DNA of 52,925 bases, from NCBI GenBank assembly GCA_015064525.1, contig SVSC01000002.1, positions 1 through 52,925 of the forward strand. The letters are read 5' to 3'. The stretch comes from Oscillospiraceae bacterium (GTDB lineage: Bacteria > Bacillota > Clostridia > Oscillospirales > CAG-272). Of this stretch, positions 1,145 to 41,532 are shown piece by piece (the stretch's first letter is position 1; each line of letters begins with the position of its first letter). The position numbers and the translations under genes were made by a program. The notes beneath the pieces are model-generated. The model saw nothing but the letters and a program-made list of their open reading frames with translations. It was not told where the DNA came from and ran no database searches.

Positions 1145-3742
1145 TCAGATGCCCTGCTGTCGCCTGCGACGAACGCAAACAAACATCACAGCAAGAACAA
1201 ACAGCAACCATCCGTAACCGCGCACAGCGCTTCCGCATCCCAATTTTTCCGTAGCAGGAGCATCTGTTTGCTCCTCTGCGGTCGGTTCTCCCGCGCTCGG
1301 GGACGTGACGGGATGTGTTTCCTCCTCGGTGGGGACGCTTTCTCCCGTTACCGCTCCCGTGTTCTCCTCGCTGCCCACAGTTTTCCAGCTGCCAAGATCA
1401 ACGGAAAATTGATTTTCGGTCAGGAAGTGCTTTTCATGAATGGTGGAGTAGGTTTCCACGTAAATCTCTTTGCCGTCCTCGGAAAAATAAAGCATTGTGA
1501 TCATTCCTGTGGCGCCGAGATCACCATCCACACCCTGCGGGTCGATCAGCATTTGCGTTACGGTGTTTCCGTGATCACCCGTGATCTGGGAGGTGATCAC
1601 GTAGTCGCTGGCGATATGACCCGAAATCACCAAAAAAATATTTTCATACTTGGTAATCAGCTTTTGGCGGATATCCTCGCCATTGTTTGCGCCCGGAATA
1701 TAGATCTCGGGTGCATAGGCATCATGCGAATCCAGGGTTGTACCGTCGCCGTAGAGATAGGCATGCGTGGTGACGATCACGCGATGGTTGGGGTGCGCCT
1801 CAATTACCGAGCCTGCCCATTCCAGAACGTCATCCGACGCACCAAAATCCAAGGTGACCATCAAATAATCCACGCCGCCCACGTTGATGGCGCGCCATGA
1901 ATTTTCAATCGTAGATCCATAAAAGCCTCCAAACTGCTTTTTATAGTCATTGTTGTTGAAATAGAAGTTAAAATTCTCGCTACCGTCATGGTTTCCGCGA
2001 ATTATAGAATACGGAACCACTCCGTCCAGTAAGGAAATGGCGTCCTGCGCCACGCCCCACTCCCGCACGTTATCCGTATCGGTGATGTCGCCAAGACCGA
2101 AAACGTACCCGATCTTCTTGGGCTCCACGTTCCGCAGAATCCAGCGATAGAGTGTGTACAGTTTCTCCGAAGCATGATTGGTAACCTTTTGAGTATCTCC
2201 CACCACGCAGAAGGAATAAGCATAATCCGCAACGGACTCATGATCCACAAAATAGACCTTCGGGCTCCAATCGGCATATTCTCCCGATGCTGCGAGACTA
2301 TCGTTTTTGGTTGCAATTGTGAGATCGTCTACCTCAAATTCGCAGGAGCTATAGCGGAAAAGGCGGAACAGATCAATATTATGGAAGCGGATGCCCGCAT
2401 CAACCGTTTGGATCGCTTTCCCATTGATCATTACGGTGTAGGAATCAATGGCGCCCTTCTCTCCCGTGATGGAGTTTACGTTTTTGTTATAATGAAAAGC
2501 GATCTCCATCAGCGTCCATTCGTCCTTTTTGAACTCATACTCGGGATAAGAAACACCGCTGATCCGCAATCGACCGTTCATAATATGCACCCGATCCTCA
2601 GATTTCTGATAGTCGGTATTCCGCCACGAAAACTTCATTTCGATGTTTGACATTTTGGGCTTGACCTTGAAGGAAAGAATAAAATCACGCGCAAGATTCA
2701 GCTCCGTTCCGCTGTTGTTGAAGCGCAGATCAATATAATCATAGCTCAGGCGATCCAAATATTTCAGCGTGCCATCCTCCAGCGTGTAGGTGCTTCCGTT
2801 CTCATTGCAAACGAACAGCCCCTTTGCAGCCGCAATGGATGCGGGAGAACCCGAGGTGTTCACCGAGCCCTTGGAGAAGTCCTCTCGGAACAAAATCTGC
2901 TGCTCGGCAGGCTCCTCATCGGAGGGCTCCTCCGGCTCCGGCTCAGCGGGAGGCGTAAGATCGGTAATATCCATCAACGAGGTGCTTCCAACCGCCACCC
3001 GAACGTCATCAATTTCAAGCTCGCAATCACCGCTATAGCGGAAGCATCGGAAACTCTCGATGTTCTGGAATTTTACTGCCGTTTCCTGGGTATAAAGCGC
3101 AACGCCATTCACCATCACCGTGTAGGAAACGATTGCTCCCTTGCCGATGGAGGGATCGATTGCGTAATAATCGGGAATTGCTTCGGGGTCATAATTGAAG
3201 GCAATTTCAACCAACGACCACTGATTCGCCGGCAATGCCTTTTCCGCTTTGAGGGTGGAGCTTTCACCACGATACGTATAGAAGGAGCCCCCCGCCACAC
3301 GAAGCTGATTGGTTTCATTGCCCGATGAGCCGGATGCGCCCTCGGAATTGCTGTACCAAGCAAATCTGCCAAGGTTTGCCGATTCGTCGGGCTTCACCTT
3401 GAAGGAAAAAATAAAATCACGGCGAAGGTTCAGGACAGAGTTATAAATCGAACGGAATCGAACGTCCAAAAAGTCGTCGTCCTTTTTCGGGGTATATTGC
3501 AGGTAGCCGTTTTTCGTGGTAACAGAGCTTCCCGAGGAAATATTCGCCCACACACCGTTGCTTTCCTTCACTGCGCTATCCTTGGAGCTGGTGTTGATCA
3601 CTCCGGAGAAATCCTCACTCCAAAGAATTCGCTCGGCATTGGGCGTAACCGTTGCGGCAAAAACCGTTACAGATGGAGCTAAAACCGACAGAAAAAGCGC
3701 TAAAACTAAAAATGATAAAATCTTTTTTGTTTTTTTCTTCAT
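1145..3742 (-). CDS. cell-surface protein: signal peptide, 2 LamG/ConA-like modules, calcineurin-like metallophosphoesterase, GCG-type C-terminal anchor
   Basis: Signal peptide MKKKTKKILSFLVLALFLSVLAPSVTVFA. Two ~230-aa paralogous modules carry DFIFSFKVKP/DFILSFKVKP, VEIAF/MEIAF, YTVMVNG/YTVMINGK and FRCFRY/FRLFRY. Metallophosphoesterase motifs are VVGDTQ, GLGDITD, RGNHD, TTHAYL and SGHI. The tail is TEKLGCGSAV + hydrophobic helix + RRRRQQGI. The ORF-track start at 3769 is a TTG; ATG 3742 is preferred. Confidence 0.8.
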   Translation of the reverse strand: MKKKTKKILSFLVLALFLSVLAPSVTVFAATVTPNAERILWSEDFSGVINTSSKDSAVKESNGVWANISSGSSVTTKNGYLQYTPKKDDDFLDVRFRSIYNSVLNLRRDFIFSFKVKPDESANLGRFAWYSNSEGASGSSGNETNQLRVAGGSFYTYRGESSTLKAEKALPANQWSLVEIAFNYDPEAIPDYYAIDPSIGKGAIVSYTVMVNGVALYTQETAVKFQNIESFRCFRYSGDCELEIDDVRVAVGSTSLMDITDLTPPAEPEPEEPSDEEPAEQQILFREDFSKGSVNTSGSPASIAAAKGLFVCNENGSTYTLEDGTLKYLDRLSYDYIDLRFNNSGTELNLARDFILSFKVKPKMSNIEMKFSWRNTDYQKSEDRVHIMNGRLRISGVSYPEYEFKKDEWTLMEIAFHYNKNVNSITGEKGAIDSYTVMINGKAIQTVDAGIRFHNIDLFRLFRYSSCEFEVDDLTIATKNDSLAASGEYADWSPKVYFVDHESVADYAYSFCVVGDTQKVTNHASEKLYTLYRWILRNVEPKKIGYVFGLGDITDTDNVREWGVAQDAISLLDGVVPYSIIRGNHDGSENFNFYFNNNDYKKQFGGFYGSTIENSWRAINVGGVDYLMVTLDFGASDDVLEWAGSVIEAHPNHRVIVTTHAYLYGDGTTLDSHDAYAPEIYIPGANNGEDIRQKLITKYENIFLVISGHIASDYVITSQITGDHGNTVTQMLIDPQGVDGDLGATGMITMLYFSEDGKEIYVETYSTIHEKHFLTENQFSVDLGSWKTVGSEENTGAVTGESVPTEEETHPVTSPSAGEPTAEEQTDAPATEKLGCGSAVRGYGWLLFVLAVMFVCVRRRRQQGI

Positions 3743-3765
3743 TTTAATTCCGAGTGCCTCCAATG

Positions 3766-6284: not shown

Positions 6285-6307
6285 ACAGAACCTCTCTGAC
6301 TGAAATT

Positions 6308-7483
6308 TTAGGTCAACAAATTCTTTTCCTGCAGAAAAAGCCTCAGCTTTCGCGCGGCGATCAGGTGACCGTCCTCGGTGGGATGTCCGTTCCCCCCCTG
6401 TCGGTCACGGTTCAGCTCGCACAGATAGAGCCCCGCGCCCTCACCGCCCAAGGCTTCGATCGCCTCGCGGATCCACGGGATCACGTTGTTGTCGCCCATC
6501 ATATTGTAAGTCCAAACAATATTCACCCTGCCGTATTTCTCCCGAACCATACCGATCAAACAGGTGACGCCTTCCATCACCGCGGCCTTGGCAGAGCCCT
6601 TGGTTTGATCGTTGGTGCCCAGATTGATCACCACAAGATCGGGGGTTCTTGAAAAATCGTAAACGATTGCGCTGTTGCGGTAGTAGGACTGCATGGGATA
6701 AAAATCGGTTGCCTTGAAGGAGGTAAAGCCCTTGTCAAGCCCTACTCCGCTGCAGCTCACAATTGAGCAATCGGCACCGAGCGCCTCGGAGGTGAGATAG
6801 GCAAAGGCTATGGTTCCGTCCTCATAGAGCGCGGTGCCTTGACCTTGTTCGCCGTTGAGGCAGAGATTCCCATGACCGCAAAGGATGCTGTCGCCAATGA
6901 ACTCAATGTAGGTGTCCGACTCCGCGGGCTTCTCCCCCAGCTCCCCCAAAAAGCTGAGCGATTGGAACAAGCAAAGAGAAAACTGCGCTTCGGTCTGCTT
7001 CAAAACACGAACGGTATGGAATTGTCCGTCGGAGAAGTTGGCAAGCGTCAGCGTTGCGGAGCCCACCGGCGCGTAAAAGCGCTGTTCCTGACGCACGCCA
7101 TCGATCCAAACGGTGAAGTAGGCGTCCTTGGTTGGCTGCACCTTCAATTCAACCGCACCCTCCGCGCAAACCGAAAATTCAATGCCCGACGCGGTAAAGT
7201 CACAAGCAAGACCGCCCGAAACGAGCTGTGTTCTTCCATGCAGCTTCAGCTTGTCATAGATCTCCGAAATGGGATAGGTTACCGCCATCGGTCGGGGCTC
7301 TTCGGTTTGGGGCGCAGTCGTCTGCTCTGTTTTCGGTTCGGTTGCTTGCGTGGGGCTTGAATCGGCAGACGCCGTGGGTTCGGCGTTTTCGTTTGCCCCG
7401 TTGGATGCTCCGCAAGCGGTTGACAACAAAAGAATCAACGCCGTGATCGATAAGCACATGATTCGAAGTAACATTCTTTTCAT
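6308..7483 (-). CDS. SGNH/GDSL esterase lipoprotein with N-terminal beta-sandwich (CE2-like acetyl esterase)
   Basis: Lipobox LLLSTAC. SGNH blocks IEFIGDSILCG, NLGTND and GHPTEDGH sit behind a ~150-aa N-terminal domain, as in carbohydrate esterase family 2. Confidence 0.65.
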   Translation of the reverse strand: MKRMLLRIMCLSITALILLLSTACGASNGANENAEPTASADSSPTQATEPKTEQTTAPQTEEPRPMAVTYPISEIYDKLKLHGRTQLVSGGLACDFTASGIEFSVCAEGAVELKVQPTKDAYFTVWIDGVRQEQRFYAPVGSATLTLANFSDGQFHTVRVLKQTEAQFSLCLFQSLSFLGELGEKPAESDTYIEFIGDSILCGHGNLCLNGEQGQGTALYEDGTIAFAYLTSEALGADCSIVSCSGVGLDKGFTSFKATDFYPMQSYYRNSAIVYDFSRTPDLVVINLGTNDQTKGSAKAAVMEGVTCLIGMVREKYGRVNIVWTYNMMGDNNVIPWIREAIEALGGEGAGLYLCELNRDRQGGNGHPTEDGHLIAARKLRLFLQEKNLLT

Positions 7484-7604
7484 ATCGCAAGATTCTCCTT
7501 TTCAATTGGTGAAAAAGGCAACAGAAGGTCCGAAAAGACACTCTGTTGCCTTTTATACTGCGTATCTTTTTCGATTCGCTCATGGCGCCCCGAAAGCGAC
7601 GCTT

Positions 7605-9134
7605 TTAGCCGGCGTCTTTAAAATATGTTTGTCTGATCTCCGTAAGCTTGGTTTCAGCCTTATCAAAAAGAGATGTGTAGTTGGAGGAAAGGCGGTTGGA
7701 TTCCATCAAGGCGGTGGAAGAGATCAACTTGCCCATACCGCCCGGATTGTAGAGTCCGAAATAGTCCTTCACCGCGGTTCTGAGGATGATATCGATAACC
7801 TGTCCCGCGCGGCTCTCGCGAACGTACTGGAGCTTCAAAGCCTCCTCTAAGAACGGGAGGGTTACGGTGCGGTAGGACTGCGCGCAAAGCGCCTCGATCA
7901 CGATAGAGGTAAATTCGGTGTCTCTACAGGTTGTGGGGATCACCACAAAGGTGGAGGATTCCTGAATTTCGGAGAGATAGTCCTTTTGAGAAAGATCCAG
8001 CTTGGGAGACGGCAGAATACCGAAATTCTCCTCCATGTTACGCATGGGTTCCTGGGAGATCGCCTTGAGCTGTCCTTCATAGAACAGAATGTTACCGTTC
8101 ACAAAGGAAACGCTGGGAACAAGATAATCCGCGGGCTCATAATAAACGCCGGGATTCTCGAAGAGCAATTCGATCATCGCGTCAACAGCTTTGGAGGCTC
8201 TCTCCAGATCAACATCAACGATCACGTAGCCGTTATCATCACGGCTCCAACGGCGAACGTCGAAGCCGTATTCCACAGCCTTGACACGAACGGGGTTACC
8301 AATGGCAAAGCCGATAAAATCTTCTCTCAGATCCAAGCCGTCGCCGTTCAGATCGCTGTAGGATTCCGCCGCCTTTTCAGCCAGCACCTCCATGGTCCAA
8401 CCGCCTGCGATAACCAGGTCGTAGAGTCCGTCCAAGCCTTCCTCATAGCGCTTCGCGTACTCATCGGAGTTCACGTAGAAGGCACCCGCCTTGGTATAGG
8501 TGGTAAGGGTAATATCGCCGCAGAGGTACAGCAGATACTTGCCGTTATAGGACTGCGCCTCCATGGCGTCCCGCTTCCACCAAGGCTCCTCCAGCGAGAG
8601 ATACTCGTATTGGCTCACGTCACTGAAAAACAAATATTCCACGCCGGATGCAATCGCGCTGTTTCCCATGGTATAGATAAAATCAAACTCAGAGGTCTGA
8701 GAGTTTCCGAACACATTCAACTCCTGCGCGTACTCACCGAAACGGGTGGTATCGGACAATTTGTTTTGAATGGTGATATCCAGTCGCTCCTCCACAGCCA
8801 TATTTCGCTTGTAGATCAGGTCGCCAACCTTATCACCGGTAAGTTCACCGTAGCCATTGGTGTCAACCTCAAAATTTTCGTAGAAGGAATACGTGGTGAT
8901 CTCCTCTCCGGAAAATTTGGTACTGACCCATTCGGGAAGATTGTCCTTTTCAAGGGCGCGCAACTCGGCATCCGTCAGCTTTTCGTTGGGATCGCGCTCC
9001 TTGGTGATCGCAGGCTTTGTTTCATTAACAGACCCTTTCTCGTTCCCGCATGCGGTAAACAGAGGCAGGCACAGTACAAGAGCAAGCATCAGAAGCGCAA
9101 TTCTGACAATGACTTTATTTGCGTTCATATTCAA
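7605..9134 (-). CDS. extracellular solute-binding lipoprotein (large family-1 ABC SBP type)
   Basis: Lipobox LPLFTAC. About 500 aa with sugar-SBP-like composition. ATGA overlap with the upstream gene. No permease or ATPase genes anywhere in the window. Confidence 0.6.
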   Translation of the reverse strand: MNMNANKVIVRIALLMLALVLCLPLFTACGNEKGSVNETKPAITKERDPNEKLTDAELRALEKDNLPEWVSTKFSGEEITTYSFYENFEVDTNGYGELTGDKVGDLIYKRNMAVEERLDITIQNKLSDTTRFGEYAQELNVFGNSQTSEFDFIYTMGNSAIASGVEYLFFSDVSQYEYLSLEEPWWKRDAMEAQSYNGKYLLYLCGDITLTTYTKAGAFYVNSDEYAKRYEEGLDGLYDLVIAGGWTMEVLAEKAAESYSDLNGDGLDLREDFIGFAIGNPVRVKAVEYGFDVRRWSRDDNGYVIVDVDLERASKAVDAMIELLFENPGVYYEPADYLVPSVSFVNGNILFYEGQLKAISQEPMRNMEENFGILPSPKLDLSQKDYLSEIQESSTFVVIPTTCRDTEFTSIVIEALCAQSYRTVTLPFLEEALKLQYVRESRAGQVIDIILRTAVKDYFGLYNPGGMGKLISSTALMESNRLSSNYTSLFDKAETKLTEIRQTYFKDAG

Positions 9135-11248
9135 GAAAGCTCCTTTCCGTTATACGTTATATTTTGTGTGTACGAATTGAGAACTGCGTTGAGGCGATCG
9201 GCAGTAACGTCTCTGCCGTTAAAGGATATGTTGGAGATCGACACACTTGCAATCATATGGGTTTCGTCGAAGCCCTGAAAAATGATTCTTCCGAACACAT
9301 CACCAAGAACTTGAATGTTATCAATGGTGATCCGCAGAATTTCTCCGCGTTCCTTATCCTGCGTGTATTGGGTTTCCTTGATGAAAAACTCTATGAGCTT
9401 TCCTGTGGCATCCTCTATACGAATATTTCGGTAGGTAACCTCGGAAACCACCGCGCGGTCGCCCAGATGGATGCTCATGCACGCGCCCTTTACAACGTGA
9501 ATAATGTCGTTTTCTTCAAACAGAATGTCCGAAATGCTTTGTGCGCGCGTCTCGTAGCCGATCTCGATCGCATTTCCGTACTCGTGATTCCAGAACACAC
9601 AATTGCGAACACGAACGGTTTTCACGTTGGTTCCCATTGCCTTAATGGCAATACAGTCATCATTGGTGCGGAAGAAGCAGTTTTCGATGGTCACGTTCTC
9701 CGAGCCAACGATATCCACTCCGTCGCTGTTGATTCTGGTTCCCACCACGCTCACATTGTCCATCACGCAGTTTTTACTTTCGGTAAAGACCGTCATCCAT
9801 TTTCGAGGTCCCGTGAGGAAATAGTCCTTTAGGAGAATATTTGAGCAGCCCTTGAATTCCATCATGCGCGTCTCAACCGCAAAGCTGAAGGTATCAATGA
9901 TCCCGCGACCGCAAATGGTGAAATCGTTTGCCCCCGTTGCGGTAAAGCGCGCGTGCAGGATTGCCCCCTCCGCAACGTAGATAGTAGTGTTCGATGGAAT
10001 ATCCATGGTCTTATCAAGCCAGTACTCACCGGGACCGTAATAGAGCAGCGTTCCCTCAACCGTGTGGGGGTCGAACTCCTCCCGCGTGTGCAAGAACAGC
10101 TGAACGCTATCGGTACTATCCTTGTAGAAATCCTCGAACTCCACCGACAATTTACACGGAAAGGAGGTGACCTGAAAGCTCACCGTTCTTCCGCTGACCT
10201 CCGGCTTAATGCCTGCACTTGCAGGACGGATTTCACATTCCTCAATTGTTGAGGGGCGCTGGATACGAACGTTCATCGCGCTTTCTCCTTCCTTCAGGGA
10301 CGCGATCACGTGGTAGCCTGCTTCGTTATGGTAAACGTCTGCCTCCTCGCCGTTGAGAAAGACCTTAAAGCTGTTAGCGGGAGCGCTGATGATCCTTTCG
10401 GCAAAAACGATCTCGCGATAGCGCGCCACAACAATTCCATCAACCTTAACAGCCAAATTGTCCGCCTTGAGGTCGGGCTCTACGGAAAGCGACCACGCAC
10501 CTGAGGCACCAACCTCCGTTTCTGCGCTTTTCAGCACGGTTTCTCCCTGATAAAGGTCGATCGAGATCTTTTTACCGGGAGATGCCACACCGTAGCAAAG
10601 CGTGCTACTGTTGGCAGGCAAGCACATTTTGTCCATAAACTGATTATAAATCCGAAAATCAAGGAACTCAAAGCGCTCGATTCCTCGGTTAAACAGCTTT
10701 TCGGCATAAAGATTTTTCAGGGTGATGGCATCGCCTTCGAGAACACGGAGCAGGATCTGCTCCAAGCCCTCCATCAAGCCTCCCGCATCGGCATAGCGGA
10801 AGATCATGCGATTCTCAAGAATCTGAATATCGTATTCTCCCTTTTCAAGAGTGATCGGATCAATGGTGTAAACGCTTTCCTCTCGCTTGGTTTTTCCAAT
10901 GATAATCTCGCTATCGGTGACCGGAGAATCCTTCACATAGTCGGTTACAAGCTTGATATCCGTGTAGCCCCTTAACCGTACCACCTCCAAAAAGGAGAGG
11001 AGGATCTTCAGTTCATCGGTCTTCATGGTGTCCGAGCGGACCACCTGAAAATCATTGAGCGTTCCCCGCAGAAGCCCGTCCCAAAAAAGCGCCTCGGTGG
11101 GAGTCTGAGAAACGGTAGGATCAATCCCATCCGTAGGAGCTTCCGCAGCGGGTTCCTTTTCGCCACAAGCGGTCAGCGCAAGCAACAAAAGCACCATAAA
11201 AAACGCCAGCAAGCGTTTACCGCTTCCTTTTAACATACCCTGAATCAT
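9131..11248 (-). CDS. lipoprotein with C-terminal GH28-like parallel beta-helix domain
   Basis: Lipobox LLALTAC. The C-terminal third has NSDGVDIVGSENVTIENCFFRTNDDCIAIKA and YGNAIEIGYE, and is paralogous to the next gene. The ~370-aa N-terminal region is unassigned. Confidence 0.65.
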   Translation of the reverse strand: MIQGMLKGSGKRLLAFFMVLLLLALTACGEKEPAAEAPTDGIDPTVSQTPTEALFWDGLLRGTLNDFQVVRSDTMKTDELKILLSFLEVVRLRGYTDIKLVTDYVKDSPVTDSEIIIGKTKREESVYTIDPITLEKGEYDIQILENRMIFRYADAGGLMEGLEQILLRVLEGDAITLKNLYAEKLFNRGIERFEFLDFRIYNQFMDKMCLPANSSTLCYGVASPGKKISIDLYQGETVLKSAETEVGASGAWSLSVEPDLKADNLAVKVDGIVVARYREIVFAERIISAPANSFKVFLNGEEADVYHNEAGYHVIASLKEGESAMNVRIQRPSTIEECEIRPASAGIKPEVSGRTVSFQVTSFPCKLSVEFEDFYKDSTDSVQLFLHTREEFDPHTVEGTLLYYGPGEYWLDKTMDIPSNTTIYVAEGAILHARFTATGANDFTICGRGIIDTFSFAVETRMMEFKGCSNILLKDYFLTGPRKWMTVFTESKNCVMDNVSVVGTRINSDGVDIVGSENVTIENCFFRTNDDCIAIKAMGTNVKTVRVRNCVFWNHEYGNAIEIGYETRAQSISDILFEENDIIHVVKGACMSIHLGDRAVVSEVTYRNIRIEDATGKLIEFFIKETQYTQDKERGEILRITIDNIQVLGDVFGRIIFQGFDETHMIASVSISNISFNGRDVTADRLNAVLNSYTQNITYNGKELS

Positions 11249-12501
11249 TCTGTTACCTCAAATTCGATTTGTTTTGTGCGCTCTGCAACCATACGGCATT
11301 GCAAAACGCTTTGGATAGGCTCACCGTGAACCGTCACATTCTTGAAGCGGATTCTCTGCACCAACGAATCGTCGGGAGCATAGCCGCTGAGAATGGAAGG
11401 CGGAAAAGCTCCGTCATCCACAGAAATATTTTCCAAAAGAACATCCTCCACACATCCCCTCTGTTCGTCACGGGAATAGTTGGAGCAAAGAACCTTGAAA
11501 TCGAACAGCTTATCCACAGCATCCTCCACGCGAATATCGCGGTAAACGATGCGGTAAATCCGCGCACGATCACCGTTGTGAATGGTAATCGCGCCGCCCG
11601 ATTGCCAACCCTCATGCTCGCAATGGATCAGATCGATATCCGAAAAAGTGACGTCGCAAATCTCATCGCATCGGGTTTCAAAGCCAATTTCAATGCCATT
11701 GCCGGGTTGCGCGTTCCAGCACACGCAATGATGGATATTGATATTATATACGTTACGCAGGCCTGCCTCGCCGCAGTAATCGGTTGCCTTGATGGCAACA
11801 CAGTCGTCGGCGGTACGGAAAAAGCAATTTCGCACCTCGGCATCATGACAGCCAACCAAATCCACACCATCGCCGCACATCATCCATGTCATCACGTTCA
11901 CGCTGTCCATCAGGATGCTCTCGCATCCCCAAAAGGCACAGCACCAGCCGTGGGAGCCTGTGAAAGTAACGTCACGCACCGTGATCCCCTTGCTGTTATA
12001 GAAATGAGTCATTCTGCGGCGCTTGGTGCTGTAATCACCCTCTAAATCAAGAATTCCTCTACCGCATATGGTTACGTTTTCGGCATCAACCACCTGAAGA
12101 TGCGCGTGAACAACGGCACCTTCAGCCAAATAGATCGTTTCATTGGAGGAAACAACCAGCTTATCCATTGCGTATTCTCCGGGTGCAAAGTATCTCACGT
12201 TTTCTCCCGTTGGCTTGACCTCCGGCTCATAGAGAAACAAAAACAACGGCAGGATCTCTTTTTCGGAAAACTCAACGCTTAATTTGCATGGAATTTTTGC
12301 GGTCAGGTTGATCCTTCCATTCTTGATCGTTGACTGAACGCCCAAGGACAGGGGACGAATCGTTGGAGTTGCTTTCGCGCCATCCGGTTCAATTTCCACA
12401 AGTGCCTCTTTCTCCGAAAGCATAGCGGCAGAATAAATAACGTACCTTGCAATGGGATTCTGATGGACAACACAAGGATGCCCATTGATCCGAATGTTCA
12501 T
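11245..12501 (-). CDS. GH28-like parallel beta-helix glycoside hydrolase, cytoplasmic
   Basis: CGDGVDLVGCHDAEVRNCFFRTADDCVAIKA and GNGIEIGFE (polygalacturonase-type NTDG/DD/G.G pattern). No signal peptide. Confidence 0.65.
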   Translation of the reverse strand: MNIRINGHPCVVHQNPIARYVIYSAAMLSEKEALVEIEPDGAKATPTIRPLSLGVQSTIKNGRINLTAKIPCKLSVEFSEKEILPLFLFLYEPEVKPTGENVRYFAPGEYAMDKLVVSSNETIYLAEGAVVHAHLQVVDAENVTICGRGILDLEGDYSTKRRRMTHFYNSKGITVRDVTFTGSHGWCCAFWGCESILMDSVNVMTWMMCGDGVDLVGCHDAEVRNCFFRTADDCVAIKATDYCGEAGLRNVYNINIHHCVCWNAQPGNGIEIGFETRCDEICDVTFSDIDLIHCEHEGWQSGGAITIHNGDRARIYRIVYRDIRVEDAVDKLFDFKVLCSNYSRDEQRGCVEDVLLENISVDDGAFPPSILSGYAPDDSLVQRIRFKNVTVHGEPIQSVLQCRMVAERTKQIEFEVTE

Positions 12502-12569
12502 ATGGAACCTCGCTTTCTGCGCATTTCAACCGCATCTGTTTGAAACGGATGCGGTTGAGCAAAATTAGA

Positions 12570-14252
12570 TCAATCTTCCTTTTTGCGGAGCATCACGCCG
12601 CCAAGAGCGATCACAGCGATAACGCTCAGGGAAACAACCGATGCGCCGCAGCCACCCTTCTCCGTTTTGGGAGCCTCGGTGGTGGAAGCAGAGGTGCCGG
12701 GAGCAGCGGTTTGCTCATTGGTTGCGGGTGCGTTGGTTGCGGGAGCGTCGGTCACAGCGGGATCGGTTACGGTGGGATCACCGGTCACCTCACCCGTCAC
12801 GTCCTCGTTCTCATTGCCATTGCTGTCATCGGGCTTGGGAGTTCCGTAGGACATAGCATAGATGGAGGAGGTATTTCCTGCCAGCACGCAGATCTCGTCA
12901 ATCTCAAAAGTATAGCTCTTGAGGTAACGGAACATACGGAAATGCTTGATTTGGGTGAGAATGGAATCCGAAGAAAGGGCGCCGGTTGCCATTGCTTTAC
13001 CGTTGAGCATCAGCGTGTAGGAGGTAAATTCCTTGAGGGTTTCGTCGTAATCGAACATAACCTCAATCAGCGTCCATTGATCAACGGGAAGCTTACCGCA
13101 GTTTTTATCATCGGCATAAATATAACCGTCGATGATCTGAATATTCTTGGTGTCCATCACCCCCTCAGAGTCACGTCGCCAGTCGATCAGATGCTCTGTG
13201 AAAAGATCTCCTGTGTGGGGCTTGAACTTAAAGGAAAGAACGAAATCCTCCTTTACCTTATAATTTCTGACAATATAGAACTGAAGATCCAGAAATTCCG
13301 CGCCCTTAAAGCCGAGCGTTCCGTTTTCCAGAACCCAGTTGCTATCCAAATTTCCATTGTTCAGCCAAAAACCGTTAGACTCCATCAAGGACGGAGAATC
13401 GGGAGAAGGCGCGGAATAGATGGTTTCACCGGAGAAATCCTCATAGTAGAAATACTCACGCCAGGTCAACTGATCGGGAGCAACCTCGGGAATGGGCTCG
13501 ATCACGGGAATCTGCTCAGCCTCGTTATCGGGAATTGCAATACCGTTGTGCGACTTGGTTCCCTTGATCAGCGCATACTCGTCGATCATAATGGTTCCCA
13601 TCATCACATCATACGCAGCAAACATACGGAACTGGTCAATGGCGGTCAGCTTGGCATCCTCCAGGATCTTTGTGCCAATCTTTTCACCGTTCATGTAGAA
13701 ATCCACGGAAGTAAATACCGTGTCGGTGCTATGGAACATCCACTCCAGCGTGGTGTAGGAATCCAGCGGCAGAACAGGAGTTTGCACCTCTCCGCTATCG
13801 GTGGTCATAGAGATCTTTCCATCAACGGTATTGAACAGATGATGCCAGCTGGAGGACTCAGCCTCATTCCGATAACGGAAGCCGAAGAAATCCTTGTTGG
13901 AGCGATTCCATGTTGCGGTGGGCTTCAAGCGCAAAAACAACGTGAAATCAGTGGAAATCTTTTGAAAATCGGTCACCCAGAACTGCAGATCCAACAACCC
14001 CTGCTCATTGCCGTTGTTCATATACACCAGGTTCAATGCGCCGTTCATCACCGAGGTCATGCTTTTATATGCATTCAGAGGAGTTAAGCCACCCAAGCGC
14101 TTAGGAGCGGGGAGAGAATCCAGGTTGTTAAAGTTTTCCTTGTAAAAGTACTCAAATTCAGATACTTCCTCTGCCGCAATGGCGGTAAAGGAAGAAAGAA
14201 TACCAAGGCACATCAGCGCCGCCAACAAAAGCGAAAAAGCTCTCTTTTTCAT
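12570..14252 (-). CDS. cell-surface protein: signal peptide, 2 LamG/ConA-like modules, Thr/Pro stalk, GCG-type C-terminal anchor
   Basis: The real start is ATG 14252 (aaggagaacc SD), giving MKKRAFSLLLAALMCLGILSSFTAIA. The track start at 14339 adds an implausible 29 aa. Modules carry DFTLFLRLKP/DFVLSFKFKP, LEWMF/IEVMF and FRMFAAY/FRMFRY. The tail is TEKGGCGASV + helix + RKKED. Confidence 0.8.
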   Translation of the reverse strand: MKKRAFSLLLAALMCLGILSSFTAIAAEEVSEFEYFYKENFNNLDSLPAPKRLGGLTPLNAYKSMTSVMNGALNLVYMNNGNEQGLLDLQFWVTDFQKISTDFTLFLRLKPTATWNRSNKDFFGFRYRNEAESSSWHHLFNTVDGKISMTTDSGEVQTPVLPLDSYTTLEWMFHSTDTVFTSVDFYMNGEKIGTKILEDAKLTAIDQFRMFAAYDVMMGTIMIDEYALIKGTKSHNGIAIPDNEAEQIPVIEPIPEVAPDQLTWREYFYYEDFSGETIYSAPSPDSPSLMESNGFWLNNGNLDSNWVLENGTLGFKGAEFLDLQFYIVRNYKVKEDFVLSFKFKPHTGDLFTEHLIDWRRDSEGVMDTKNIQIIDGYIYADDKNCGKLPVDQWTLIEVMFDYDETLKEFTSYTLMLNGKAMATGALSSDSILTQIKHFRMFRYLKSYTFEIDEICVLAGNTSSIYAMSYGTPKPDDSNGNENEDVTGEVTGDPTVTDPAVTDAPATNAPATNEQTAAPGTSASTTEAPKTEKGGCGASVVSLSVIAVIALGGVMLRKKED

Positions 14253-14365
14253 AATGGTTCTCCTTTTCTTGTGAAGAACACAGCGGTCACGTTCCACGGT
14301 CAAAGAAATGTTCGCCGCAAAAAAGACCGCTGTATTCATGAATAACTGATACTTACATTAAAGAA

Positions 14366-14485
14366 TCAAAGCTCAAGACCAAGATCCCAATTCTCTCCCG
14401 AGCCATTGGCGGTTACGGAAATCGTTACGATATCGACGTTTGCCATCTCAATGATTTCCAATTGAGGATTTTGATAGTTCTTCAT
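14366..14485 (-). CDS. unannotated 39-aa ORF (acidic small peptide)
   Basis: Below the ORF-track size cutoff. ATG at 14485 lies 9 nt after GGAGG (14499-14495). Translation is MKNYQNPQLEIIEMANVDIVTISVTANGSGENWDLGLEL with stop TGA at 14368-14366. It starts 1 nt after the upstream stop codon. Confidence 0.45.
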   Translation of the reverse strand: MKNYQNPQLEIIEMANVDIVTISVTANGSGENWDLGLEL

Positions 14486-14486
14486 A

Positions 14487-16412
14487 TTATTTTACCTCCG
14501 TTTGGGGAATATCGGTAGCGGGATCCACCGTGAAGGTCACGGTCTCTCCTGCAACGGTTGCGTTTTCACCCAGCTGATAGTAGGTGGTAACGGTGAAGAT
14601 AATCACACCCTGATCCACGGGAATATTCCTGCAGTTCAAAGCAAAGATATAGGAACCGTTCAGCTCGGCAGCGGTGTACTCCTTGTAGCCCTCCGCGGTT
14701 TCGGTTGCAACGATCTTTTCATAAACAGTGGTAATATCCTGCACCTTGGTGAGGGTCTTATCACCGATCTTCACCTCAACGTCAAAGCCAACCTTGGTGT
14801 AGTCAGAAACGTTGGCATCGGTGGTTACGCCAACCAGACGAAGATCAAACACACCGTTGGTTGCAGCGGTTGTCTGGTAGCCTGCGAAGGTGGTCTTTTC
14901 GGATGCATTGTAAACAGACTCGCACCCCTTTACAACGGTGAGAGAATCCAGCGCAATGCCCTGACCAACGGTGTAGGTCTTGAACATACGGAAGTGGTCG
15001 ATACCTGCCAAGGGATTGGCGATGGTAGCGCTACCCAGCTTCACGCCGTTCACATAGCATTCCAGGGACTCATACTGCGCGGTGGTCTCGTTCCAGTGGA
15101 ACATCACCTCAAGCGTGGTGAAGGAATCGGTGGGCAAAACGCCGCTCAGCACGTCGCCGCCATCCGCCTTCATTCCCAGCTTGCCGTCCTTGGTAAAGAA
15201 ATACTGATAGTTGCTAAGGTTGTTGGAGGGAGCAGATCCCGATTTGTTGTAGCGGAAGGAAAGGAAGTCGGCATCGCTTCTGTTCCACGTTGCGCCGAGG
15301 GGCTTCATTTCCATAGAAAGCGTAAAATCACCGGTGAGGAACTTGGTGTTCGCAAACTCACCCTTGTTCGTCCACGAATTGGAATCCCAATACTGAATAT
15401 CAAAGAATGCCTGAGTACCGGTATTCTTGCCGCTGTTCAGCAGATAAAGCACGCCGTTCTCCACATAGGAAACAGGAGCCTCGGGCGTTGCAACAACAGA
15501 ACCGGGTCTGTAGCTATCCTGCGCCTGTAAACCCTGATAATTCTTCAGATCGGTGTAATTCTCGGAGACCTTGGTCCACTCGGAGAAATCGGTGGTCTGC
15601 CACAGAGAGGGGCCCTGATCAGGTTCTTCCTCTGCCTCGTAGAGAGATACGCAACCCTTTACAACTGCAAGAGAATCCAACGCGATGCCCTGACCTGCAT
15701 CATAGGTGGTGAACATACGAAAATGGTCGATGCTTCTCAAATTTGCATCACTCAGCGTCTTCTCGCCCAAAAGCTCGCCGTTGATGTAGAATTTCGCGTT
15801 AGTGTAAAGACCTGCGGCATTATCGTAACTCAGCATCAGCTCTAACGTGGTGAATTCCATGGTGGAGATCAAGCCGCTGGTAACATCGCCGTTGTTGGTA
15901 GACATCTTGATGGCACCGTTGGAGGTCGAGAAAAGCGATACCCAACCGGATGCAGTTCCGTTTTTATTGTTTCTGAAACGCAAAAAATCGGTGTTGGATC
16001 TATTCCAAGTTTTGCCCAGTGGCTTCAGACTCATGGAGAGTGTAACGTCTCCTGTTACAAACTTGGTGTCGGCAAATTCGCCCTTATTGACCCATTCATT
16101 GCTATCAAAATACTGAATGTCGAAGAATGCCTGTCCGCCGGTGCCCCACAGATTCAGCACACCGTCGCTCACGTTGGAAACAGGCACCTCAGCGGTGGCA
16201 ACCTTATCGCCAACCGTGTAGCTGTTTAAAGCCTGCAGACCGTAATGCGCTTTCAGGTCGGTGAAGGTTTCGGGAACCTTCGTCCAATCGGAAAAATCGG
16301 TCTGATACCAGAATGTCGGATCCTCGGTAGCGGTTACGGTGACAGGAACCAGTGCACTCACGCACACCAACACTGCCAAAAGGAATGGGAGCAATCGTTT
16401 TGTTTGTTTCAT
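14487..16412 (-). CDS. secreted protein with 2 LamG/ConA-like modules plus C-terminal beta-rich domain
   Basis: The real start is ATG 16412 (cggaggataaacgaATG), giving MKQTKRLLPFLLAVLVCVSALVPVTVTA. Two modules carry WNRSNTDFLRFRN/WNRSDADFLSFRY and IDHFRMF. There is no C-terminal anchor. Confidence 0.8.
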   Translation of the reverse strand: MKQTKRLLPFLLAVLVCVSALVPVTVTATEDPTFWYQTDFSDWTKVPETFTDLKAHYGLQALNSYTVGDKVATAEVPVSNVSDGVLNLWGTGGQAFFDIQYFDSNEWVNKGEFADTKFVTGDVTLSMSLKPLGKTWNRSNTDFLRFRNNKNGTASGWVSLFSTSNGAIKMSTNNGDVTSGLISTMEFTTLELMLSYDNAAGLYTNAKFYINGELLGEKTLSDANLRSIDHFRMFTTYDAGQGIALDSLAVVKGCVSLYEAEEEPDQGPSLWQTTDFSEWTKVSENYTDLKNYQGLQAQDSYRPGSVVATPEAPVSYVENGVLYLLNSGKNTGTQAFFDIQYWDSNSWTNKGEFANTKFLTGDFTLSMEMKPLGATWNRSDADFLSFRYNKSGSAPSNNLSNYQYFFTKDGKLGMKADGGDVLSGVLPTDSFTTLEVMFHWNETTAQYESLECYVNGVKLGSATIANPLAGIDHFRMFKTYTVGQGIALDSLTVVKGCESVYNASEKTTFAGYQTTAATNGVFDLRLVGVTTDANVSDYTKVGFDVEVKIGDKTLTKVQDITTVYEKIVATETAEGYKEYTAAELNGSYIFALNCRNIPVDQGVIIFTVTTYYQLGENATVAGETVTFTVDPATDIPQTEVK

Positions 16413-16712
16413 TCGTTTATCCTCCGTTTTTGTTTTTTTGAGCAAAAGCGACCCAACTCGCCCACGCTCTTTCACACTCATTATATCATAGGTTTGAACA
16501 GCTATCAACAGTAAAACGCACCAAAAGATACGTTTTTTATACCCAATCACATTTTTATTTCGTCAAAAAGTAGCAAATCTCAATCAATACTGCTTTATTT
16601 GACAGAACCATCTGCTTCAAAATTGTTAGATTTAACCAAATAATAGTGACAGTTCCTCCCCTATCTTACGCTTTTAAAAGTACAAAAAGAATACAATTTT
16701 TCCAAAAAGCTC

Positions 16713-16741
16713 TTGTTTTTTGTTAGTGATTATGGTAAAAT
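16713..16741 (+). promoter_or_regulatory. candidate promoter of the AraC gene
   Basis: TTGTTT-17 nt-TGgTAAAAT (extended -10), about 35 nt before the start codon. Confidence 0.4.
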
Positions 16742-16777
16742 AAAGACAGATTCATCTGAAATCGGAGGTGATTGACC

Positions 16778-17662
16778 TTGAAAAAGAACAATTTTTTTCA
16801 GGAGTATCATTATAAGGAGGAGCTTTGGTTTATCAACACCGATTCCCAAAGTCCCGTTCTGAACGTGGAGTTAACGGGCATCACCTATGCCGACCCCACC
16901 TACCATATCCGCAGGAAAGCACTTTGGGATATGTACATTCTGGAATACGTGACCGACGGCATCGGATATATTCGTTGCAACGGTCAGAAATATACCGTTG
17001 GAAAGGGTGATTGCTACATCATTCGCAATTTTACCGATCATGAGTACTACGCGGATCCCCAGAACCCCTATCAAAAGGTTTGGGTGAATCTTTCGGGAGC
17101 CTTGGTGGATCATCTTTTGGATGTCTTTAATCTTTCCGAGCCCGTGATCGTTCGCCACGCGGATCTCAGCGATTGCTTTGAACGCCTGCGGCGCCAATTG
17201 GAAATCGAATACAATTTGGAGCAGCTTTCACAGATCATTTTGAATATGATCTTCAAAATCTCCGAAAGCTTCAAGCCACACGAAAAACAGAACCTGCCCC
17301 TGGCTGAAAAAATGAAAATCTTCATTGACAAAAACATTTACAAAAATATTTCCACCGCCGACGTTGCCGAGCATTTTCACATTACGCCACTCTACGCCAG
17401 CCGCGCTTTCAAAAAGCACTATCAGCAAACCATCAATCAGTACATCAACGAATCCGCGCTCAAGCTATCCGCCCAATGGTTAAAAACCAGCGACTACACC
17501 ATTGGCGAGATCTCCGATATGCTGGGCTACTGCAACGACAACTATTTTTCCAACCAGTTCAAGAAGCGTTTTGGATGCTCTCCAAAGCAATATCAGCTTC
17601 AGCACCGCCAAAAGCGAATCTGCAACAATCCCGTTAAGCAGGACGAAAAAGCGCAGAACTAA
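16778..17662 (+). CDS. AraC family transcriptional regulator (cupin sensor + HTH)
   Basis: C-terminal AraC HTH (ISTADVAEHFHITPLYASRAFKK..., ISDMLGYCNDNYFSNQFKKRFGCSPKQY). N-terminal cupin-like domain. GGAGG at 16764-16768 favours TTG 16778 over the track start TTG 16772. Confidence 0.85.
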   Translation: MKKNNFFQEYHYKEELWFINTDSQSPVLNVELTGITYADPTYHIRRKALWDMYILEYVTDGIGYIRCNGQKYTVGKGDCYIIRNFTDHEYYADPQNPYQKVWVNLSGALVDHLLDVFNLSEPVIVRHADLSDCFERLRRQLEIEYNLEQLSQIILNMIFKISESFKPHEKQNLPLAEKMKIFIDKNIYKNISTADVAEHFHITPLYASRAFKKHYQQTINQYINESALKLSAQWLKTSDYTIGEISDMLGYCNDNYFSNQFKKRFGCSPKQYQLQHRQKRICNNPVKQDEKAQN

Positions 17663-17667
17663 CCAAA

Positions 17668-17714
17668 CGAGCCACCCATGGAATTTTCCACAGGTGGCTC
17701 GCCTTCTTATTTTT
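17668..17714. terminator. bidirectional terminator between araC and the CE15-like gene
   Basis: 9-bp stem cgagccacc/ggtggctcg. Followed by ccttcttattttt on plus and tttggtt on minus. Confidence 0.5.
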
Positions 17715-18789
17715 GAATGAAATTCAAGAAAAAGCGCCAATCATCGCGGCTGAAATAGTGGGTTCCGCTTCGCATAAAAAGCCCGATCTGTCCTCGATCG
17801 GAAGACATTCCCGTGGTCATCAAACCAACCTCGGGATCCAATCCCATCACACCCAGCTTTTCGTAGATCACGGAAGCTGCTTCAAGGGAGAGATACTGCG
17901 CCTCGGTGTCTGCCCAGGTATCCTCCTCCGCAGTTGCCACCGACAGCTTACGGGGCGCGATCAGCGCGGTGAGATAGTGCTGGTCGAAGGGCATCTCGTT
18001 CTCCCTGTTCGCATAGCTCGCAAAGCAGGGAGCAAACCAGAACGGGAAAACTCTTGTGATGATCTCCACCGTTTCCCCGCCCTTTTCACGGGCAATGGAA
18101 ACGCCCGAGGCTCCCGAATTATTGGAGTGAACACCTGCAAAATTGGTGTCCAACGCCGCCGCCAAAAGCGCGGTCTTTCCCAAACGAGAGTGCCCTGCAA
18201 CGTAAAGCCGCTCACGGGTGACATACCCCTCCTTCAGAAGATGCTCTCCGATCAAAGAGGCAGCGTATGCCCAAATTCGGAGCTTACCTGCGGAATGGGG
18301 ATCCCGACGATCGGTGAGAAGCGGCGCAATCCCATTCTCGAAATCGTTATCGTCGGAGGTGACATTGGTGTACAGCACGCGGGCAACGGCAACCCCCGCC
18401 TCCATAATTTCCTCAATGGGACAATAGCAGTGTCTTTCGTTGAAGGCAAAATCCAGCGAAACCACAACGGGACAGTTCTCGCCTCCACGAGGCAGATAAA
18501 AATCCACAGGGAAGGAGGCGCTTCTCTCCCCCTTGGCAAGGGTGAACACATATCGGATATGCTTTTTGCATTTTCCCGCATACGATGCAGGCTCACGGAG
18601 CTTTTCCTCCGCCACAGAAACCGATACGCCGCAGGTATCCAGCTTACCGTACTCCTCGGAAAGCAATCGCTCGATGGTGCGCTCCCGATCGAAATTCCCC
18701 TCCCTATCAACGAGAAATTCGGGCAACTCCAGCGCGGGACTATAGCGGGTGGTTTTGGTGAGTAATTCAGATCGAAATTGCAATGCCAT
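17707..18789 (-). CDS. alpha/beta hydrolase resembling CE15 glucuronoyl esterase
   Basis: Nucleophile elbow GHSRLGKTALLAAALD (the CE15 motif is G-x-S-R-x-G-K). No signal peptide. ATG 18789 behind GAGGGGG is preferred to the TTG at 18795. Confidence 0.55.
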   Translation of the reverse strand: MALQFRSELLTKTTRYSPALELPEFLVDREGNFDRERTIERLLSEEYGKLDTCGVSVSVAEEKLREPASYAGKCKKHIRYVFTLAKGERSASFPVDFYLPRGGENCPVVVSLDFAFNERHCYCPIEEIMEAGVAVARVLYTNVTSDDNDFENGIAPLLTDRRDPHSAGKLRIWAYAASLIGEHLLKEGYVTRERLYVAGHSRLGKTALLAAALDTNFAGVHSNNSGASGVSIAREKGGETVEIITRVFPFWFAPCFASYANRENEMPFDQHYLTALIAPRKLSVATAEEDTWADTEAQYLSLEAASVIYEKLGVMGLDPEVGLMTTGMSSDRGQIGLFMRSGTHYFSRDDWRFFLNFIQK

Positions 18790-18804
18790 TTTCAACGCCC
18801 CCTC

Positions 18805-19830
18805 TCAGCGCTTTCCGGAAAACTCACCGTAGATCGGTTGCGACCATGCCGCTCTTCCCCGATCGTCATAAACGGTCACACGGACGTAGCCCGGAAAAAC
18901 ATTTTTCAAATCGAAGCGCGCCTGATTCAAAGGCGTATGCGGACTGTCCGCATAAACCACCTTTGCCTGTCGAACAGCCGTGGTGAGGGTGATCTTGGCG
19001 GCGGGAGAGGTGGTGACGCTGAGAATGTCATCCTCAACGTATAGCTCCTGAATCAACGGGCCTGAGGAGGCATAGAAATCACCTGCCTTCAAGGCGTTGT
19101 AAATGGCGGGCTGGCTCAGCTCCTCGGCGCGGATCATCACAAAGCCACCCAGGGAATCCCAATAGGAGGTTCCCTTTGGATGGTGGTTGTGGTTATCGTC
19201 GGTTGCGGTGCAGAACAAGCGATGCCCGCGGCGCAGAAGTGTGTCGAATACACCGTCGTTGATCTCGTTATAGCCCGCAATATAGCAATCGTGGTTATAA
19301 ACCTCCATGCCAAAGATATTGGTGGTATCCAGATCGCGGTAGTCCTCGGCTGTTTGCTGCGACCAGGTGGGATGGTTGAGCATGGCAATAAAGCCGTGCT
19401 TCGCGTACTCGTTAATCATGAAATTGATATTGTCGTAATCTCTTACAAAATCGGGAGTACCGATATATGGCTGAATTTCCAAGAGATCCCGCCTTTTGCT
19501 CCAAACCGCCTTGTTATAGCAAGGAAGCGCCACCTGATGAGGATCGGAATGATAAAAGTTGATATGGTAGCAGGGACGGAAGGCATTATGTCCCTCTCCT
19601 ACCTTTTCCACGTTAACCTCGGTTGCCGTCATGGCAAGGAAGCTCTCGTCACTCAGCTCGGAGTGGTCGATCAGCACGTTGTGATCACTGTAAGCCAGCA
19701 CGGAATATCCTGCAGATTTATAGATCTCCTTCAACTCCTCCGGAGTCATTTTACCGTCGGAATCGGTGCTGTGGCAATGCAGATTTGCTTTATAATACCG
19801 ATCTCCGCCTGAAATAATATACTGTCTCAT
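18805..19830 (-). CDS. PHP-domain metal-dependent phosphoesterase
   Basis: YKANLHCHSTDSDGKMTPEELKEIYKSAGYSVLAYSDHN is the PHP N-terminal His/Asp signature. GGAGG SD. Confidence 0.75.
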   Translation of the reverse strand: MRQYIISGGDRYYKANLHCHSTDSDGKMTPEELKEIYKSAGYSVLAYSDHNVLIDHSELSDESFLAMTATEVNVEKVGEGHNAFRPCYHINFYHSDPHQVALPCYNKAVWSKRRDLLEIQPYIGTPDFVRDYDNINFMINEYAKHGFIAMLNHPTWSQQTAEDYRDLDTTNIFGMEVYNHDCYIAGYNEINDGVFDTLLRRGHRLFCTATDDNHNHHPKGTSYWDSLGGFVMIRAEELSQPAIYNALKAGDFYASSGPLIQELYVEDDILSVTTSPAAKITLTTAVRQAKVVYADSPHTPLNQARFDLKNVFPGYVRVTVYDDRGRAAWSQPIYGEFSGKR

Positions 19831-27757: not shown

Positions 27758-27793
27758 GAAATGATCCGTAAAGTCAACTTTACGGATCATTTC
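27758..27793 (-). terminator. hairpin overlapping the dxs stop codon
   Basis: ~15-bp stem gaaatgatccgtaaag/ctttacggatcatttc, loop tcaa. Followed on minus by tttgtacatt. Confidence 0.45.
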
Positions 27794-30425: not shown

Positions 30426-30578
30426 GGAGATCGGTGACCCCATTTCGGTCGGTTATTTTGAAAAAAACAGTATTTTTCGGACTCCGTACAGATATTGCGA
30501 CAATCTTTTCGTGCATGGAGCGATATAATATTACAAAAGGCTGCCGGCACTTCGGCAACGGAAAGGAAAATAAAAAAA

Positions 30579-31121: not shown

Positions 31122-31122
31122 C

Positions 31123-41494: not shown

Positions 41495-41532
41495 TCACAA
41501 AAAGCAGATTGGCTTGTCCTTTTTTCGGGGTT

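Follow-up and report, generated by a model that had tools for sequence, protein, structure and literature searches.

A cysteine-containing C-terminal tail as a candidate sorting signal on secreted proteins of uncultured Clostridia

Tailed and tail-less proteins of a pectin-type locus

We analysed a 52,925-nucleotide stretch of the Oscillospiraceae bacterium contig SVSC01000002.1 (hereafter the window), in which two secreted proteins of 560 and 865 amino acids (aa) share a short cysteine-containing C-terminal tail. An earlier reading of this DNA, made from the letters alone (the sequence-only reading), had proposed the tail as a candidate sorting signal. Translation confirmed its starting point: both proteins end in TEKxGCG[AS][SA]V followed by a helix and a basic tail, and in both the motif is preceded by a stalk rich in Thr, Glu, Pro and Ala (Table 1). 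Read on the minus strand, positions 12573–12665 translate exactly to TEKGGCGASVVSLSVIAVIALGGVMLRKKED, the C-terminus of the 560-aa open reading frame (ORF), whose terminal sequence is ...TTEAPKTEKGGCGASVVSLSVIAVIALGGVMLRKKED; the plus-strand reading of the same interval gives a nonsense translation and was rejected. The 865-aa ORF ends ...DAPATEKLGCGSAVRGYGWLLFVLAVMFVCVRRRRQQGI / ...TEKLGCGSAVRGYGWLLFVLAVMFVCVRRRRQQGI. For the 560-aa protein, the start was placed at the ATG at 14252, where homologs begin at an equivalent MKK, and an upstream ATG at 14339 was rejected. A third paralog of 641 aa had been said to lack the tail, and it does: it ends in a soluble domain, which makes it the natural comparison for the two tailed proteins.

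Table 1. Coordinates of the tailed proteins, their parts and the tail-less paralog in the window. Slashes mark signal peptide cleavage sites; SPase-I, signal peptidase I; AF2, AlphaFold2; pLDDT, predicted local distance difference test.
Feature	Positions	Strand	Basis or remark
560-aa secreted protein gene: two LamG/concanavalin-like modules, stalk, GCG tail	12570..14252	-	ORF and translation
Sec signal peptide of the 560-aa protein, MKKRAFSLLLAALMCLGILSSFTAIA/AEE, SPase-I type, no lipobox	14175..14252	-	sequence
Stalk of the 560-aa protein, low-complexity Thr/Pro/Ala/Asp/Glu, aa 470-529	12666..12845	-	sequence; AF2 pLDDT <30 from residue 466
Collar and signature TEKGGCGASV, aa 530-539	12636..12665	-	invariant Cys535, codon 12648-12650
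Uncharged membrane-spanning segment GASVVSLSVIAVIALGGVML, aa 536-555	12588..12647	-	begins right after the Cys, without polar spacer
Cytoplasmic basic cluster and acidic end RKKED, aa 556-560	12573..12587	-	stop codon 12570-12572
865-aa secreted protein gene: two LamG-like modules, calcineurin-like phosphoesterase, stalk, GCG tail	1145..3742	-	Metallophos E=3.3e-8
Sec signal peptide of the 865-aa protein, …SVTVFA/ATV, SPase-I type	3656..3742	-	sequence
Stalk of the 865-aa protein, Glu/Thr/Pro-rich, aa 790-830	1253..1375	-	sequence
Collar and signature TEKLGCGSAV, aa 831-840	1223..1252	-	Cys836, codon 1235-1237
Membrane segment GSAVRGYGWLLFVLAVMFVCV, aa 837-857	1172..1234	-	atypical: Arg at +5, aromatic residues
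Basic cluster RRRRQQGI, aa 858-865	1148..1171	-	stop codon 1145-1147
Tail-less paralog, 641 aa, same LamG-like modules	14487..16412	-	C-terminal soluble domain of ~140 aa instead of the tail

The modules that precede the stalk resemble carbohydrate-binding folds. Pfam gave a weak Laminin_G_3 match in the 560-aa protein, and PDB sequence searches with both passengers (560 and 865 aa) gave no match. The AF2 model of the 560-aa protein was used for fold class only, given its low overall confidence (pLDDT 54.5); it contains two beta-sandwich modules at pLDDT 70–85 and is non-globular from residue 466 onward. Foldseek neighbours of these modules include BT3469, laminin LG4-5, neurotoxin Hc lectin domains and tandem CBM22. 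This fold class suggests that the tail-bearing proteins of the window are probably surface glycan-binding (lectin-like) proteins.

All three LamG-module proteins lie in a pectin/rhamnogalacturonan-type polysaccharide-utilisation locus (1145–19830), which is syntenic in three related contigs (L001, L002 and L021). The locus further encodes two GH28-type proteins (one a lipoprotein), GH43, GH2, a GDSL/CE2-like lipoprotein, a CE15-like (GCE_fung) esterase, a solute-binding lipoprotein, a PHP-domain protein and an AraC regulator. Neighbouring enzymes and the binding protein carry N-terminal lipoboxes, whereas the lectin-like proteins combine a signal peptidase I (SPI) signal with the C-terminal tail, so each protein has one anchor.

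Conservation, anatomy and spread of the tail

Homology searches with the full-length passengers, which are unbiased as to the tail, returned only four relatives of the 560-aa protein among 5.8 billion proteins (73–29% identity), and all four have a C-terminal G-C-G-[SA] that is followed by a helix and a basic cluster. Orthologs of the 865-aa protein (P0104, P0106 and P0005, at 68, 57 and 43% identity) retain the tail with G-C-G-[SG]. The refuting case named in the sequence-only reading, that only these two proteins carry the motif with no conservation in orthologs, is rejected, since G-C-G was kept in every ortholog with a homologous tail. Because identity in the 865-aa ortholog family stays at 100% across G-C-G while the helix and the collar before the motif have drifted to 18% and 17%, the alignment indicates that G-C-G is under motif-specific purifying selection.

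Across 103 unique tails, on which the following anatomy is based, the general form is E-[KE]-[KGS]-G-C-G-S-x-[IV]-[GS]-[GS]. Counted from the Cys, the collar has E at −4 (69%), K (55%) or E (30%) at −3, and K (41%), G (25%) or S (20%) at −2. The G at −1 and the Cys itself both stand at 100%, a figure that is partly circular, because the profile and the regular expression reward G-C-G. On the other side of the Cys come G at +1 (94%), S (84%) or A (11%) at +2, V, S or A at +3, I (50%) or V (43%) at +4, G (47%) or S (25%) at +5, G at +6 (57%) and A at +8 (61%). The invariance of the Cys, claimed from two proteins, is thus borne out in the larger set, and the G-C-G of the orthologs supports it without bias because these were found through the passenger and not the tail. 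The exact motif TEK-x-GCG-[AS][SA]-V fared differently: it is present in both window proteins, yet is a local dialect of the broader signature, the TEK-x collar being specific to the window genome and E-[KE]-[KGS] the general one.

The Cys is followed by 24–30 residues (median 27), and the uncharged span (median 22 residues) begins directly at Cys+1. A Gly/Ser-rich, helix-destabilising zone occupies +5 to +7, and the helix is rich in Ala, Val, Gly and Ile with no conserved Pro. The tail ends in 2–5 K/R, typically as [RK]KK[ED][DN]. The 30 residues upstream of it consist largely of T (20%), A (16%), E (13%), P (10%) and D (9%), and SPI-type signal peptides were found in 53 of the 66 tail-bearers with an intact N-terminus; the large tail-bearers are of this type. 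The tripartite architecture without LPXTG that had been described for the two window proteins therefore holds across the set.

LamG-like modules are common to every tail-bearer of the window and its syntenic contigs L001 and L002, and these proteins together form one paralogous superfamily, so that on this evidence alone the tail could be a family heirloom. By that account, chance or shared ancestry, the two window paralogs would simply have inherited an ordinary tail. We consider this extremely improbable in view of an exhaustive run of profile A1 (six tails, 36 positions) against 1.84 billion representative proteins. Ninety-two proteins, 42 to 2457 aa long, matched at E≤1e-3; every one of the 92 matches ends 0–7 residues from the protein C-terminus, and 87 end within 0–2. 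The passengers are mutually unrelated and comprise BspA-type leucine-rich repeats (LRR_5), GDSL esterase, CBM9, Big_1, FIVAR/M26_N-type adhesin repeats, LamG and Metallophos, besides Cys-rich zinc-ribbon repeats and many proteins without a Pfam domain. The same tail on passengers as undetectably related as LRR_5, GDSL, CBM9, Big_1 and FIVAR, always at the C-terminus, refutes inheritance with the passenger, and the tail-less paralog and tail-less orthologs show the module being gained and lost independently of the passenger. These searches indicate that the tail is a real, widespread and portable C-terminal module, in keeping with its proposal as a sorting signal.

Other searches were narrower. 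The word-indexed collection of 5.8 billion proteins is ill-suited to 35-aa motifs, and a longer tail alignment retrieved from it only 6 small proteins, at best named 'hypothetical protein'; sub-family alignments A3 and A5 gave 5 and 9 loci, respectively. In a regular-expression survey of 190 kb of loci, restricted to ORFs of 200 aa or more with a terminal hydrophobic stretch and basic cluster, G-C-[GT] stood just before the helix in 14 of 16 ORFs, the two exceptions being a cohesin protein and a polytopic transporter.

Likeness to catalogued signals

A scan of 27 tails or proteins against Pfam and, at E≤10, against NCBIfam release 20 (June 2026) gave no score at or above a curated cutoff. This NCBIfam release includes the recent models GVDTG_CTERM, PVV_CTERM and 'lipo-invert' NF058595. 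Among the models that the sequence-only reading had put forward for comparison, Firmicu-CTERM and GlyGly-CTERM gave zero matches, and MYXO-CTERM (TIGR03901.2) reached at best 15.9 bits against a cutoff of 20, with the tail of the 865-aa protein; most tails did not match it. The closest models, all short of their cutoffs, were MYXO-CTERM, Synerg-CTERM and Rumino_NPXTG, and of the curated models MYXO-CTERM scored highest with the 865-aa tail. Other best scores were likewise below cutoff: 12.4 bits for GC_trans_RRR (TIGR03382; cutoff 15.85), 17.2 for Synerg-CTERM (TIGR04564; cutoff 22.5, one tail only), 18.6 for Rumino_NPXTG (NF033846; cutoff 23.5), 12.9 for LPXTG_anchor (TIGR01167; cutoff 15.9), 12.9 for Pfam Gram_pos_anchor (PF00746; cutoff 20, helix part only), 15.6 for cyano_PEP (cutoff 21.6) and 16 for GVDTG (cutoff 29). 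The JDVT and CGP models had no matches among the tails scanned, and the invert_tail model matched only the N-terminal signal peptide of one small protein (P0018). Source databases held no name for the tail-bearers beyond 'hypothetical protein', and literature searches found no Cys-type C-terminal signal described in Firmicutes or Clostridia.

In architecture the tail nevertheless resembles MYXO-CTERM. Both are tripartite, with a G-C-G-type signature around an invariant Cys, a spacer-less helix and a basic cluster, and both are carried, after disordered linkers, by dozens of secreted proteins that are unrelated to one another. They differ in that the clostridial tail has a single Cys where MYXO-CTERM frequently has GCGC, is preceded by a conserved acidic/basic collar (E-[KE]-K), and ends Lys-rich and acid-terminated (KKKED) rather than Arg-rich. 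MYXO-CTERM, moreover, belongs to Myxococcota and is tied to MrtX, MrtC and MrtP and the type II secretion system (T2SS), whereas the carriers of the tail are sporulating monoderm Clostridia, with no outer membrane or T2SS step.

Synerg-CTERM (MrtS), JDVT-CTERM (MrtJ) and the archaeal CGP-CTERM (TIGR04288/MrtA) share with the tail that they are lineage-restricted, tripartite, spacer-less and contain a Cys. CGP-CTERM works in cells without an outer membrane and is preceded by Thr/Ser-rich linkers. The clostridial tail has neither the invariant Pro in the middle of the Leu-rich helix of Synerg-CTERM, nor the DP of JDVT, nor the CGP of CGP-CTERM, and it is longer, with 24–30 residues after the Cys compared with ~20 in total for CGP-CTERM. 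GlyGly-CTERM, the rhombosortase signal, is likewise tripartite and has a small-residue (Gly/Ser) motif abutting the helix, but unlike the tail it lacks an invariant Cys; an intramembrane protease cleaves it before a lipid is attached, and it is known in Gram-negatives with T2SS. Judged by its sequence features, the tail would fall in the same class as MYXO-CTERM, Synerg-CTERM, JDVT-CTERM and CGP-CTERM, yet form a separate, uncatalogued family, and it is probably a means of attaching proteins to the cell surface that has yet to be described.

A further candidate is an unusual sortase signal, in which K-G-C/G-S would stand for LPXT/G, with Cys at the Thr position and Gly at the Gly position, and the passenger would end up attached to the cell wall. 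Like the Firmicutes that use LPXTG and NPXTG signals, the carrier Clostridia are monoderms; the helix is of similar length, and the KKKED or KRKEEN-type ending is like that of Firmicutes sortase signals. The weak matches to those models cover this helix and tail part only, leaving their motif positions unmatched. The tail has no LPXTG-like pentapeptide, its motif contains neither Pro nor Thr, no polar spacer separates it from the helix, and its Cys is invariant. In the 190 kb of loci, neither the TLxTC signature of sortases nor any LPXTG-like substrate was present. We therefore regard a sortase route as improbable.

The tail also resembles a lipobox, though only in mirror image. In both, the Cys lies at the outer membrane face, with small residues on its membrane side and then a helix with a Lys/Arg cytoplasmic end; on the passenger side, the tail Cys is flanked by Gly and then Lys/Glu. 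Twelve real lipoproteins from the same loci read [LFV][TVA][SGA]-C-G-[KE][KD][EN], against E-[KE]-[KGS]-G-C-G-S-[VSA]-[IV] for the tail. Unlike the lipobox, the tail is C-terminal, runs in the reversed chain direction and is far more invariant.

Ten tiny metagenome proteins (65–123 aa) carry both elements, being made up entirely of a lipobox signal peptide, a GCGS tail and the Thr/Glu/Pro linker between them (P0011, P0018, P0038, P0049, P0053, P0054, P0063, P0066, P0068 and P0076). All are on contigs shorter than 1.5 kb, a sampling that inflates their frequency. Were the tail Cys lipidated, these proteins would be anchored at both ends.

Anchoring, candidate processing and genomic context

In the topology read from the sequence, the Cys lies at the outer membrane face with the Lys/Arg cluster on the inner side; the conservation of G-C-G-S has the mark of an enzyme-like constraint. 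How the tail holds its passenger can be approached through the 865-aa family and its paralogs, where the same passenger occurs with three C-termini: the GCG tail (window, P0104, P0106 and P0005), a Cys-less helix (P0107), and the soluble domain (P0108–P0111 and the third window paralog). The tail therefore behaves as a swappable anchoring module. The Cys-less 'GLDTG' tail of P0107 was considered as a variant of GVDTG-CTERM or LPXTG and rejected (7.4 and 7.7 bits). The ~140-aa domain that takes the place of the tail (14487–14960, minus strand; also L002 7277–9784 and P0108–P0111, with L002_835 having the same domain) reads …TFTVDPATDIPQTEVK / …FTFTVSPATNANQGGVN. It has no Pfam or NCBIfam match, and could be an alternative attachment module.

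Since the plain helix of P0107 can substitute for the tail, an uncleaved type-I membrane anchor stays alive as a serious rival explanation, and we regard it as possible though somewhat unlikely. The helix would then be retained, and G-C-G-S and the small-residue helix would serve another purpose, for instance S-acylation that is not followed by cleavage, dimerisation through disulfides or helix-helix contacts, or docking to a partner in the membrane. Several points favour such an anchor and weigh against processing. A signal peptide, a C-terminal helix and a basic cluster are enough for stop-transfer, and P0107, whose tail has no sorting-model match, manages with a Cys-less helix, so that simple membrane anchoring may suffice. 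The recurrent G/A/S pattern of the helix could serve helix-helix packing. Neither the window, as the sequence-only reading had noted, nor ~285 kb of related loci yielded a sortase, CPBP or rhomboid gene. The known bacterial Cys-type systems are all in diderms and coupled to T2SS, and what a monoderm would gain by swapping a helix for a lipid is not evident. The carriers are uncultured metagenome-assembled genomes (MAGs) or metagenome contigs only, and to these points is added the partial circularity of the 100% G-C figure.

On the other side, plain anchors do not normally carry an invariant motif of 3–4 residues across unrelated passengers while the helix falls to 18% identity. The length of 24–30 residues, the absence of a spacer, the Gly/Ser breaker zone and the sub-threshold matches to Cys-type models suggest recognition by an enzyme, and extracytoplasmic disulfides are, as general knowledge has it, unlikely in anaerobic carriers. 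The missing enzyme gene is itself uninformative, since genes for housekeeping sorting enzymes do not lie beside those of their substrates; housekeeping myxosortases are never encoded next to theirs (Haft preprint). Guilt by association was also tried and rejected as a route to the enzyme. The multi-pass membrane neighbours of tail genes are a Na/Ala symporter, a Gate-domain protein, MFS, a VTT-domain protein, SpoIIGA, SpoIIE, a cation-efflux protein and Lnt, and none is a CPBP protein, a rhomboid or a sortase. The Lnt-type apolipoprotein N-acyltransferase (LNT_N and CN_hydrolase) lies on a human-gut contig (L020 9873–11468), ~6 kb from a tail-bearing gene; it is relevant to the proposed lipidation of the tail, although as a single instance it may be coincidence.

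With moderate confidence, we therefore read the tail as a portable tripartite sorting and anchoring signal of uncultured Clostridia, in which Cys lipidation and intramembrane cleavage distal to the Cys would leave a C-terminal lipid tether. After export, the helix would retain the protein in the cytoplasmic membrane, with Lys/Arg inside and the Cys at the outer face. The Cys thiol would then be modified, most likely acylated or diacylglycerylated, and a membrane-embedded endopeptidase would cut distal to the Cys and remove the helix. A 'myxosortase' of the CPBP/Rce1 type is the first candidate for this protease and a rhomboid the second. The passenger would stay tethered through its C-terminus to the outer leaflet; in the window, this would display the two LamG passengers at the surface beside the lipoprotein-anchored enzymes and the binding protein of the pectin-type locus.

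Lipidation followed by cleavage is favoured because of the precedent of MYXO-CTERM and MrtX, the spacer-less motif and the mirror-lipobox residues. MrtX, an intramembrane protease of the CPBP/Rce1 type, cleaves MYXO-CTERM in a Cys-dependent manner, and prior lipidation of the Cys has been proposed, with Lgt as the leading candidate, a role raised as a hypothesis only (mBio 2025). Signals cut by membrane-embedded enzymes have no spacer, unlike LPXTG (Haft preprint). The descriptive statements of the sequence-only reading all proved correct, and its interpretation is supported as far as this kind of analysis reaches, whereas what we say of the enzyme and of cleavage and lipidation is inferred.

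A more specific version of this pathway is tentative and, in our estimate, doubtful in its details. Firmicutes have many orphan CPBP paralogs. In a 'retro-lipoprotein' pathway of monoderm Clostridia, Lgt or a paralog would lipidate the tail Cys in inverted orientation, and an orphan protease of the CPBP/Rce1 type would remove the helix.

Surface display in gut and rumen Clostridia governs polysaccharide capture and cell adhesion. Tail-bearers range from large adhesins (up to 2457 aa) and BspA-type LRR proteins to esterases and lectin-like proteins in carbohydrate-utilisation loci, and the defined signature of the tail offers a simple predictor of the surface proteome in uncultured Clostridia. 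Tail proteins are natural candidate substrates for the abundant, poorly understood CPBP intramembrane proteases of Firmicutes, and they make testable a question posed by MYXO-CTERM, namely which enzyme lipidates the Cys preceding its helix. Cys-type C-terminal sorting, reported in Myxococcota, in the mainly proteobacterial JDVT-CTERM lineages, in Synergistota and in Thermococcales, would be extended to monoderm Firmicutes. If processing occurs as proposed, the tail would be the first case of myxosortase-like sorting in Gram-positive bacteria.

Scans that covered metagenomes and species-representative genomes placed the tail in three MAGs, an uncultured Clostridia bacterium (MAG11), a Eubacteriales bacterium and the Clostridiales bacterium UBA6330, and on gut-type metagenome contigs. 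Neighbours of tail genes include SpoIVB, SpoIIGA, SpoIIE and cohesin proteins, which identifies the carriers as sporulating, cellulosome-type Firmicutes. Tail genes recur within a genome: MAG11 has at least five, including three consecutive in L010, while L009, L022 and the window each have a pair and L001 has three. Tails are more alike within a genome than between genomes (43% against 29% identity, permutation p ~0.002), as is expected if signal and enzyme co-evolve, although recent duplication of passenger paralogs could also explain it.

The three consecutive genes of L010 (1245–10093) lie in one Clostridia MAG, and the middle one has the variant G-C-T-G (…GEIELGCTGLVGGGAIVLTAIIALATGTAKRRKED). 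In L003 (4345–9382), two cohesin-domain proteins are encoded directly upstream of a tail-bearing protein of 951 aa, so the tail system coexists with cellulosome-type surface assemblies; one of these cohesin proteins ends in a Cys-less C-terminal helix anchor.

Elsewhere in the window, the minus strand encodes a 2230-aa RHS/YD-repeat toxin (42398–49090), followed by a 285-aa helical-repeat protein (41565–42422) that we take to be ankyrin-like, an assignment made without a domain-library run. Next to these stands an orphan RHS C-terminal cassette of 437 aa (40181–41494, minus strand), which repeats ~300 aa of the end of the RHS core and then diverges. As a whole, this region (40181–49090) looks like a toxin-tip and immunity array. 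In line with a Firmicutes/Clostridia chromosome of ~50% GC, the window also has housekeeping markers: a McsA/McsB/ClpC stress operon at 30495–34675 and, nearby, PolA (22400–24916), DXS (27787–29694) and RadC.

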